Source: a virus (lineage: Duplodnaviria > Heunggongvirae > Uroviricota > Caudoviricetes). Taken from it: 40,977 nt of DNA. The notes beneath the pieces are model-generated. The model saw only the letters and a list, made by a program, of their open reading frames with translations. It had not been told where the DNA came from and made no database searches. Made by a program: the position numbers and the translations under genes. The first letter of the stretch is position 1. Each line of letters opens with the position of its first letter. Below are positions 4,174-5,457 of this stretch, one piece after another. Where the stretch lies: the IMG/VR virus record IMGVR_UViG_2563366910_000001; one strand, written 5' to 3'.

Positions 4174-4245
4174 TGAAGTGGTTTACTGAATTTGGCCACC
4201 TGAACAGAGGTGATATGCTCACCTCAGAACAACACAGGTGCCATA

Positions 4246-4548
4246 ATGAAAAAAAGAAATTTCAGCGCAGAGTTTAAACGCGAATCCGCTCAACTGGTCG
4301 TTGACCAGAATTACACCGTGGCAGATGCAGCCAGCGCTATGGATGTCGGCCTTTCCACAATGACGCGATGGGTGAAACAATTACGTGATGAGCGGCAGGG
4401 AAAAACACCAAAAGCCTCCCCTATTACCCCGGAACAAATTGAAATCCGTGAGCTCAGGAAAAAGCTACAACGTATTGAAATGGAAAATGAAATATTAAAA
4501 AAGGCTACCGCGCTCTTGATGTCAGACTCCCTGAACAGTTCTCGATAA
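4246..4548 (+). CDS. orfA: IS911 OrfA (transposase N-terminal HTH/leucine-zipper protein)
   Basis: Begins [29 protein letters not shown]..., matching recalled IS911 OrfA. ATG at 4246. Confidence 0.9.
4497..4503 (+). other. A AAA AAG slippery heptamer for the -1 programmed frameshift producing the OrfAB transposase
   Basis: AAAAAAG at 4497-4503 is in the X XXY YYZ register of the orfA frame, and orfB lies in the -1 frame. This is the known IS911/IS3-family mechanism. Confidence 0.7.
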
Positions 4549-4574
4549 TCGGGAAACTCAGGGCGCGTTATCCT

Positions 4575-5393
4575 GTGGCCACTCTCTGCCATGTGTTCGG
4601 GGTCCATCGCAGCAGCTACAAATACTGGAAAAACCGTCCTGAAAAGCCAGACGGCAGACGGGCTGTATTACGCAGCCAGGTACTTGAACTGCATGGCATC
4701 AGCCACGGCTCTGCCGGAGCAAGAAGCATCGCCACAATGGCAACCCAGAGAGGCTACCAGATGGGGCGCTGGCTTGCTGGCAGACTCATGAAAGAGCTGG
4801 GGCTGGTCAGCTGTCAGCAGCCGACTTACCGGTATAAACGTGGTGGTCATGAACATGTTGCTATCCCTAACTACCTTGAACGGCAGTTCGCCGTGACCGA
4901 GCCAAATCAGGTGTGGTGCGGTGATGTGACCTATATCTGGACGGGTAAGCGCTGGGCGTACCTCGCCGTTGTTCTCGACCTGTTCGCAAGAAAACCAGTG
5001 GGCTGGGCCATGTCGTTCTCGCCGGACAGCAGGCTTACCATGAAAGCACTGGAAATGGCATGGGAAACCCGTGGTAAGCCCGTCGGGGTGATGTTCCACA
5101 GCGATCAAGGCAGTCATTATACGAGCAGGCAGTTCCGGCAGTTACTGTGGAGATACCGGATCAGGCAGAGTATGAGTCGGCGTGGAAACTGCTGGGATAA
5201 CAGCCCAATGGAGCGCTTCTTCAGGAGTCTGAAGAACGAATGGGTGCCGGCGACGGGCTATGTAAGCTTCAGCGATGCAGCTCACGCAATAACGGACTAT
5301 ATCGTTGGATATTACAGCGCACTAAGACCGCACGAATATAATGGTGGGTTACCACCAAACGAATCGGAAAATCGATACTGGAAAAAACTCTAA
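4575..5393 (+). CDS. orfB: IS911 OrfB (DDE integrase domain; expressed as OrfAB fusion by -1 frameshift)
   Basis: 272-aa ORF in the -1 frame relative to orfA, with an IS3-family DDE catalytic region (e.g. the WCGDVTYIW segment). The listed ORF starts at the first in-frame ATG, but functional expression is by frameshift. Confidence 0.9.
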
Positions 5394-5457
5394 CTCGGTG
5401 GCCAGTTTTTGTTGACCACTTCAATTCACCCCTACAGAGAGCAAAAGAGAAACGCCG

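Follow-up and report, generated by a model that had tools for sequence, protein, structure and literature searches.

The IMG/VR virus record IMGVR_UViG_2563366910_000001 is a stretch of 40,977 nucleotides from a virus of the Caudoviricetes (hereafter the window), which carries a complete insertion sequence (IS) of the IS3 family at positions 4174..5423. The three bases on either side of this IS differ, and the question that the locus raises is whether the element simply inserted at this place or marks a position where something has been lost. Comparison with relatives argues for a loss: in our estimate there is a probability of about 85% that the window is an icd-integrated, ev017-like lambdoid prophage whose leftward early (pL) operon has lost 4,468 bp, with an intact ISEc52 at the deletion junction. 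The event is a case of ordinary, well-understood prophage decay, with a known IS in a known prophage and no new mechanism or element.

The insertion sequence and the missing block

The window is collinear over its whole length with the phages ev017 (NC_049948, Jouyvirus) and PhiR57_1 (PV340572), at 99.8–100% nucleotide identity, and shares with them int and xis as well as the genes for immunity, replication, lysis and the virion. Positions 1..4173 of the window correspond to ev017 27693..31865 (100%), 5424..19090 to 36334..50000 (99.96%) and 19117..40977 to 91..21957 (99.8%); these three collinear blocks, with 99.8–100% identity, place the window among the ev017-type (Jouyvirus) lambdoid prophages. 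The only structural difference is the presence of the IS in place of ev017 31866..36333, which is the missing stretch of 4,468 bp. Neither ev017 nor PhiR57_1 has an IS here: both contain the ea22-to-ral block, and the 4,468 bp between the two flanks are also kept in dozens of IS-free E. coli prophages. Indeed, most records of this prophage keep the block and have no IS in the region, and no related phage was found which has the gene content of the window without the IS. The intact IS thus lies exactly at both ends of the deletion, between flanks that are unrelated, and the block is present in relatives.

The content of the lost block was taken from two independent annotations, the ev017 record and that of ATCC 25922 by the Prokaryotic Genome Annotation Pipeline (PGAP). 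It comprises the 5' half of an ea22-like gene (from codon ~132), the genes of a TraR/DksA-like protein, a 71-aa (amino acid) open reading frame (ORF), DUF1382 and DUF1317 proteins, exo, bet, gam, kil, cIII, the gene of a DUF2528 protein and ral. The deletion also took most of the ral–sieB intergenic region, of which 34 bp upstream of sieB are left. When all twelve block proteins were compared with the whole window by tblastn, the best E value was 0.034, the ea22 remnant aside, and no lambda-type Red/Gam/Kil/CIII/Ral block is present between xis and N. The original prediction, which was made from the sequence alone, had noticed the absence of exo/bet, gam, kil, cIII and ral between xis and sieB; this is correct, and the lost block is larger than it had described, since it includes the 5' half of ea22 together with the genes of the TraR/DksA-like, 71-aa, DUF1382, DUF1317 and DUF2528 proteins.

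The junctions read ...GATAACAC/IS/ATTCACCCC... The left flank is CAC (4171..4173), where ev017 goes on as CAC/CTTCGTAAT, and the right flank is ATT (5424..5426), which is also the target-site duplication of an oppositely oriented ISEc52 in ATCC 25922. There is therefore no 3- or 4-bp target-site duplication at the window IS, in agreement with the earlier reading of the flanks. A duplication hidden by a different placement of the IS termini is ruled out because the two flanks are 4,468 bp apart in the uninterrupted ev017. The missing duplication speaks against a simple insertion, not against membership of the IS3 family.

As had been noticed before, the IS adjoins a 5'-truncated gene on its left and lies 34 bp upstream of sieB. 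The truncated gene is the 3' remnant of the ea22-like gene (3806..4173, minus strand), whose C-terminal ~122 of 254 codons are left and whose 5' part is deleted: residues 133–254 of the ev017 Ea22-like protein match window positions 4174..3809 (tblastn). The frame of this remnant extends into the IS, which gives a chimeric ORF of 138 aa (3806..4222, minus strand). On the other side, the coding sequence (CDS) of sieB (superinfection exclusion B; 5458..6039, plus strand; named by PGAP, PF14163) is intact and 100% identical to that of ev017, and starts 34 bp past the IS.

The element itself (plus strand, 1250 bp) begins with TGAAGTGGTTTACTG and ends with GTTGACCACTTCA. Its left inverted repeat (IRL, 4174..4209, plus strand) and right inverted repeat (IRR, 5388..5423, minus strand) are of the TG...CA type of IS3-family termini (TGAAGTGG...CCACTTCA). 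They are imperfect, as 25 of the 36 positions of IRL match the reverse complement of 5388..5423. The gene orfA (4246..4548, plus strand) encodes 100 aa with an HTH_Tnp_1 domain (PF01527, found on the identical gene of a public scaffold, L009). A slippery site, A AAA AAG, at 4497..4503 (plus strand) is in the phase of orfA and suits a −1 frameshift, and the orfB part of OrfAB extends from 4503 to 5393 (plus strand, stop codon at 5391..5393), with the domains PF00665 (rve) and PF13683 (rve_3) on the identical L009 gene. Translation after a −1 slip gives an OrfAB of 382 aa with no internal stop, which bears out the orfA/orfB pair and A6G frameshift site described earlier. The element therefore has the frameshifted ORFs of the IS3 family and, according to Pfam on the identical genes of L009, the HTH and DDE (rve) domains of an IS3 transposase. 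The copy is complete and apparently functional.

The 1250-bp copy at 4174..5423 had been called IS911; its coordinates, length and intactness stand, the name does not. Over its full 1250 bp the window IS shows 100% identity to the ISEc52 copies carried by ATCC 25922, GN02323, THO-006 and FDAARGOS_1255, and PGAP labels every identical copy as "IS3-like element ISEc52 family transposase", whereas its identity to the copies that PGAP labels IS911 (H86, H87) is 94.1–94.2%. By the convention of ISfinder, elements which bear the same name share roughly at least 95% nucleotide identity. Judged against the PGAP-labelled copies, the name ISEc52 is the correct one; this element is closely related to IS911 but is not IS911 proper. 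With ISEc52/IS911 the window IS shares a length of 1250 bp, inverted repeats that begin with TGAAGTGG, the orfA/orfB organization with an A6G −1 frameshift and a 382-aa OrfAB with HTH_Tnp_1 and rve domains. On the basis of this relatedness, the right mechanistic frame would be that of IS911, with its copy-out/paste-in transposition, 3-bp duplications and OrfA/OrfAB. The activity of ISEc52 has been reported in the related strain Nissle 1917 (bioRxiv 10.64898/2026.07.28.741313).

ISEc52 in the sister strains and at the ATT site

The window prophage is almost the same as that of ATCC 25922 (CP009072, CP158443), from which it differs at 3 positions over 35.6 kb, against 36 mismatches to ev017 in the 21.9-kb segment of virion genes. 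Positions 1..4173 match both ATCC 25922 and ev017 at 100%. The ISEc52 copies across these prophages are 100% identical to each other. The prophage of ATCC 25922 has two simple insertions in inverted orientation, IS-A (plus strand) in the DUF1382 gene, with the duplication CAT, and IS-B (minus strand), with the duplication ATT, and the exo–ral block lies between them. This near-identical prophage thus has an IS at the same ATT upstream of sieB, but it retains the block, and the DUF1382 gene is the only one disrupted.

Other strains show other states of the same region. LTC201, a laboratory strain which matches ATCC 25922 here, has kept the left junction of IS-A and has lost everything from the right tip of IS-A into sieB. 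In THO-006 the block lies between two direct copies: the first interrupts the ea22-like gene at its 3' end and has a CAT duplication, the second is found at a small ral–sieB deletion. In GN02323, one copy marks a deletion between the ea22-like gene and sieB that also takes the 5' part of the latter, and a simple insertion with the duplication GTC is present in int. Finally, FDAARGOS_1255 has one copy where the sequence between sieB and a point just before cI, including N, is lost. The ISEc52 rearrangements of these four strains are in the same int-to-cI region as that of the window and are mostly duplication-free deletions; their end points are all different.

The flanks of these copies fall into two groups. 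The sister copies which are simple insertions carry 3-bp duplications (CAT, ATT, GTC and CAT), unlike the window copy, whereas five further copies at deletions in the same region have no duplication. Simple ISEc52 insertions make the duplication and deletion-site copies lack it, so the window is another deletion case, with its own end points. The original prediction had proposed an adjacent deletion or a recombination between two copies and not a simple insertion, and had suggested checking the flanks of other copies in the same genome; the flanks of the copies in sister strains, together with the 4,468 bp which relatives hold between the flanks, support its proposal. The deletion in LTC201 begins exactly at an IS end, and therefore such events occur in this lineage. 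The arrangement of THO-006, with its two direct copies, is a plausible analogue of the state that would have preceded the deletion in the window.

As an observation in its own right, ISEc52 events recur in the early-left region (LTC201, GN02323, THO-006, FDAARGOS_1255 and ATCC 25922): four touch sieB or the sequence upstream of it, and eight of the nine copies have the same orientation. Local hopping, a preference for certain targets, or selection that disfavours kil, gam or sieB could lie behind this recurrence.

The right flank deserves separate attention. In the window, IRR is followed by ATTCACC, while in ATCC 25922 the same seven bases follow IRL, and ATT flanks that IS on either side (copy of CP158443, L011 10398..11647). 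Opposite junctions are found at ATT, and therefore the same three bases were used by ISEc52 in opposite orientations. Given the copy of ATCC 25922, ATT is a real ISEc52 target. Next to it, at 5427..5439 (plus strand) and 3 bp from the IS tip, the motif CACC-N5-AGAG (CACCCCTACAGAG) matches a subterminal motif common to both inverted repeats; its significance is uncertain. The window contains five matches to this motif, two inside the IS repeats and three outside, compared to 0.93 expected by chance for the whole window. The motif is not present at the other four ISEc52 sites that carry a duplication. It was therefore rejected as a general ISEc52 target motif; in addition, a spacing of 3 nt is at odds with the fixed-distance rule quoted in PMC7780238. 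The presence of the motif by ATT hints at a preferred target and is a weak lead.

A bolder proposal can be built on it, namely that the ATT located 34 bp upstream of sieB is a specific, orientation-independent hot spot for ISEc52, perhaps by virtue of the adjacent CACC-N5-AGAG, which would mimic the subterminal part of the inverted repeats that the transposase binds, and that ISEc52 thereby drives a convergent and possibly selected loss of kil/gam/red and of the control of sieB in the lineage which contains ATCC 25922. We consider this proposal unlikely. If it were true, the ATT hot spot would parallel, in nature, the "targeted insertion" described for IS911 in the laboratory.

Routes to the deletion and the evidence for the structure

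Two routes could lead from simple insertions to the structure of the window. In one of them, the ea22-like gene would have received an ISEc52 copy at CAC, and a second copy of like orientation would have entered at the ATT that precedes sieB; homologous recombination between these direct copies would then have excised one copy together with the block. Such a two-copy state would contain four junction k-mers, GATAAACTCTATT/TGAAGTGGTTTAC, GACCACTTCA/CACCTTCGTAATAC, CGAGATAACAC/TGAAGTGGTTTAC and GACCACTTCA/ATTCACCCCTACAG. This route is plausible because THO-006 has two copies around this very block and because ATCC 25922 uses ATT. The other route takes a single step: a lone plus-strand copy at ATT, whose IRL end, or the inverted-repeat junction of a transient dimer, would have attacked the CAC position and deleted what lay between. 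Both junctions are exactly at the IS tips, as this would require. In LTC201 the loss starts exactly at the right end of IS-A and includes the inverted IS-B, an outcome that homologous recombination between this pair could not produce, and IS dimers and deletions at the edges of inverted repeats are documented for copy-out/paste-in elements, the dimers for IS911 itself (PMC9333248). On the other hand, the product is the same as that of recombination between two copies, no single-copy precursor with a plus-strand IS at ATT was found in 5,426 complete E. coli genomes or in IMG/VR, and the state with two direct copies is known in THO-006. Adjacent deletion is thus a tentative explanation, less probable than not. 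Within an IS-mediated deletion, we would give somewhat over half of the probability to recombination between two copies and about a third to adjacent deletion, which amounts to a slight lean, as the sequence does not distinguish between them.

A third origin starts from a prophage of the ATCC 25922 type, in which an additional plus-strand copy would have inserted at ATT beside IS-B, forming an unstable head-to-head palindrome that was resolved by a leftward deletion. The two prophages are near-identical (3 mismatches in 35.6 kb) and the right junction of the window is the exact ATT that flanks IS-B; but several steps are needed, no intermediate was found, and no one-step route that was worked through by hand gives IRR next to ATT, which makes this origin highly improbable. 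Among those one-step routes, homologous recombination between the inverted copies of ATCC 25922 merely inverts the segment and does not create an IRR/ATT junction. Nor does an adjacent deletion from IS-A or IS-B, in which the retained flank keeps its original IS end. Tn10-like inside-end events were rejected since the IS comes out in the opposite orientation, and targeting of an inverted repeat since it gives tandem IRL–IRR junctions instead (PMC9333248). A slipped-strand deletion between the identical 9-bp tips of IS-A and IS-B (ACCACTTCA) would produce the right junction, but it is unlikely: the span is 4.7 kb, the geometry of the inverted repeats is unhelpful, and a second event is needed on the left.

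The structure could also have been created by an assembler. In that case the real genome would contain CAC/IS/CAC and ATT/IS/ATT with the block between them, and the short-read assembler would have joined the left flank, one IS and the right flank; the collapse of such a pair of simple insertions would leave exactly CAC and ATT as flanks. All records of the structure are indeed draft scaffolds or contigs, and in one assembly the contig (L010) stops inside the IS. However, a unique block of 3–4.5 kb between 1.25-kb repeats is normally scaffolded in place, the left junction is found on three scaffolds of more than 1 Mb, the scaffold L009 passes through the IS into sieB without any N, and deletions of the same type are real in the complete long-read genomes of GN02323, LTC201 and FDAARGOS_1255. 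We therefore regard a collapsed assembly as very unlikely.

Six public contigs encode the exact chimeric 138-aa protein of the left junction; half of them are longer than 1 Mb and the other three measure 50–200 kb. The 1.1-Mb scaffold KB733352.1 (GCA_000353125.1) is 100% identical to window 1..14222, the 14.2 kb over which the two were compared. Both junctions must be present in the reads of those assemblies. For neither junction did any of the 5,426 complete E. coli genomes give a match together with 700 bp of contiguous flank, and exact-match scans of IMG/VR found neither of the window junctions. The uninterrupted ATT site is present in at least 120 IMG/VR contigs, and among the matches listed no ISEc52 end lies near the uninterrupted site in 120 IMG/VR loci.

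Several points weigh against a deletion at ISEc52, or against the two-copy route to it. The configuration is publicly seen in short-read draft assemblies only, and because the records are of this kind the linkage of both junctions through one IS rests on scaffolding. No plus-strand ISEc52 with a duplication at CAC or at ATT is present in the 5,426 complete E. coli genomes or in IMG/VR, and because all ISEc52 copies are identical, a hybrid IS left by recombination would be unrecognizable. In sum, an IS-mediated deletion remains our preferred reading.

The rest of the prophage, predicted phenotype and relation to lambda deletion phages

All 53 ev017 CDSs that were checked outside the deletion are full length in the window, with at least 98.8% aa identity. 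Among them are int, xis, N, cI, cro, cII, O, P, ren, ninB, dam, rusA, Q, the holin, lysozyme and Rz genes, and those for the terminase, portal, capsid and tail, as far as the tail fibre. The integrase gene (1..1143, minus strand) is intact (380 aa by PGAP, with Arm-DNA-bind_1 and Phage_integrase domains) and is that of an icd-integrating, phage 21-type prophage. The excisionase gene xis (1133..1369, minus strand; 78 aa, PGAP) is also intact and 100% identical to that of ev017. The N antiterminator gene (6056..6328, minus strand; PF25694), which takes its name from the PGAP annotation of LTC201, is intact too. N heads the leftward early operon, and this operon now runs on into the IS. It had been suggested that the prophage lacks its recombination and host-killing functions while keeping the others. 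The block is gone and the other CDSs are full length; however, NinB/Orf and RusA are still present, so not every recombination function has been lost.

Several other features of the prophage lie away from the deletion. Between cI and N, the window encodes a DUF1828 protein (250 aa) and a hypothetical protein (185 aa) at 6765..8071 (minus strand); this two-gene module stands at the position of lambda rexA/rexB and is a candidate exclusion or defence module. Two cargo genes are present in the late part of the prophage: one for an OmpC-like porin, between Q and the lysis cassette in the late region (14371..15513, minus strand), and one for an Iss/Bor lipoprotein after Rz (17244..17552, minus strand). 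The ev017 record holds sitABCD, which encodes an iron/manganese transporter (22049..25498), and a 3' fragment of icd (27427..27579), just past the right and left ends of the window, respectively. Since both are inside the ev017 genome, the sit operon appears to be phage cargo and not flanking chromosome. At ~3353..3804 (minus strand), PGAP calls frameshifted or incomplete ORFs in every E. coli genome examined and the ev017 record has two intact ORFs. This is a disagreement between annotations, as the sequences are identical.

The region between int and N is dispensable for plaque formation by lambda. Red− Gam− phages are viable but depend on RecA (Fec−) and escape P2 interference (Spi−). The loss of kil removes the division block on induction, that of cIII decreases lysogenization and that of ral abolishes restriction alleviation. 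By analogy, the prophage would be Red− Gam− (Fec− and Spi−, with poor growth in the absence of host RecA), Kil−, CIII− and Ral−. It is predicted to remain inducible, since it keeps its virion genes and those for immunity, integration and excision, antitermination by N and Q, replication and lysis. After induction, transcription of int and xis from pL must cross the IS in the antisense direction, and N antitermination should permit this passage. In a scan of the strand of the pL transcript, the IS showed two weak terminator-like hairpins, a number that does not exceed the chance expectation.

The expression of sieB is another matter. A consensus scan found no promoter-like site at the new IS–sieB junction. 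A hybrid outward promoter, in which a −35 box of IRR (TTGACC) would drive sieB, was considered and rejected, as the scan was negative and the best −10 box by eye is TACAGA (3/6). The sequence upstream of sieB beyond −34 is lost and no promoter was detected at the junction; therefore the expression of sieB may be altered, in either direction. Separately, the sole sigma-70-like promoter match in 3700..6700 is at 5506..5534 (plus strand), within the sieB CDS and conserved in ev017; it could serve an internal start.

For annotation purposes, records should describe this prophage as an ev017-type derivative that is Red−, Gam−, Kil−, CIII− and Ral−, and not as an intact phage, and its IS should be named ISEc52. 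The locus is also further evidence that one active IS reshapes the same early-left region across several clinical and reference strains, including ATCC 25922, which is relevant to those who use these strains as phage hosts, for quality control or in evolution experiments.

The lost functions are those of well-known lambda derivatives. The lambda bio phages and the Spi− replacement vectors have lost exo, bet, gam, kil and cIII and have kept N, immunity, replication and the late genes; they are viable, Fec− and Spi−. The red–gam deletion and substitution phages of lambda arose from aberrant excision or by engineering, and most of them are also devoid of int and xis. The window prophage, unlike these phages, has an IS at the junction of its deletion and retains both int and xis.

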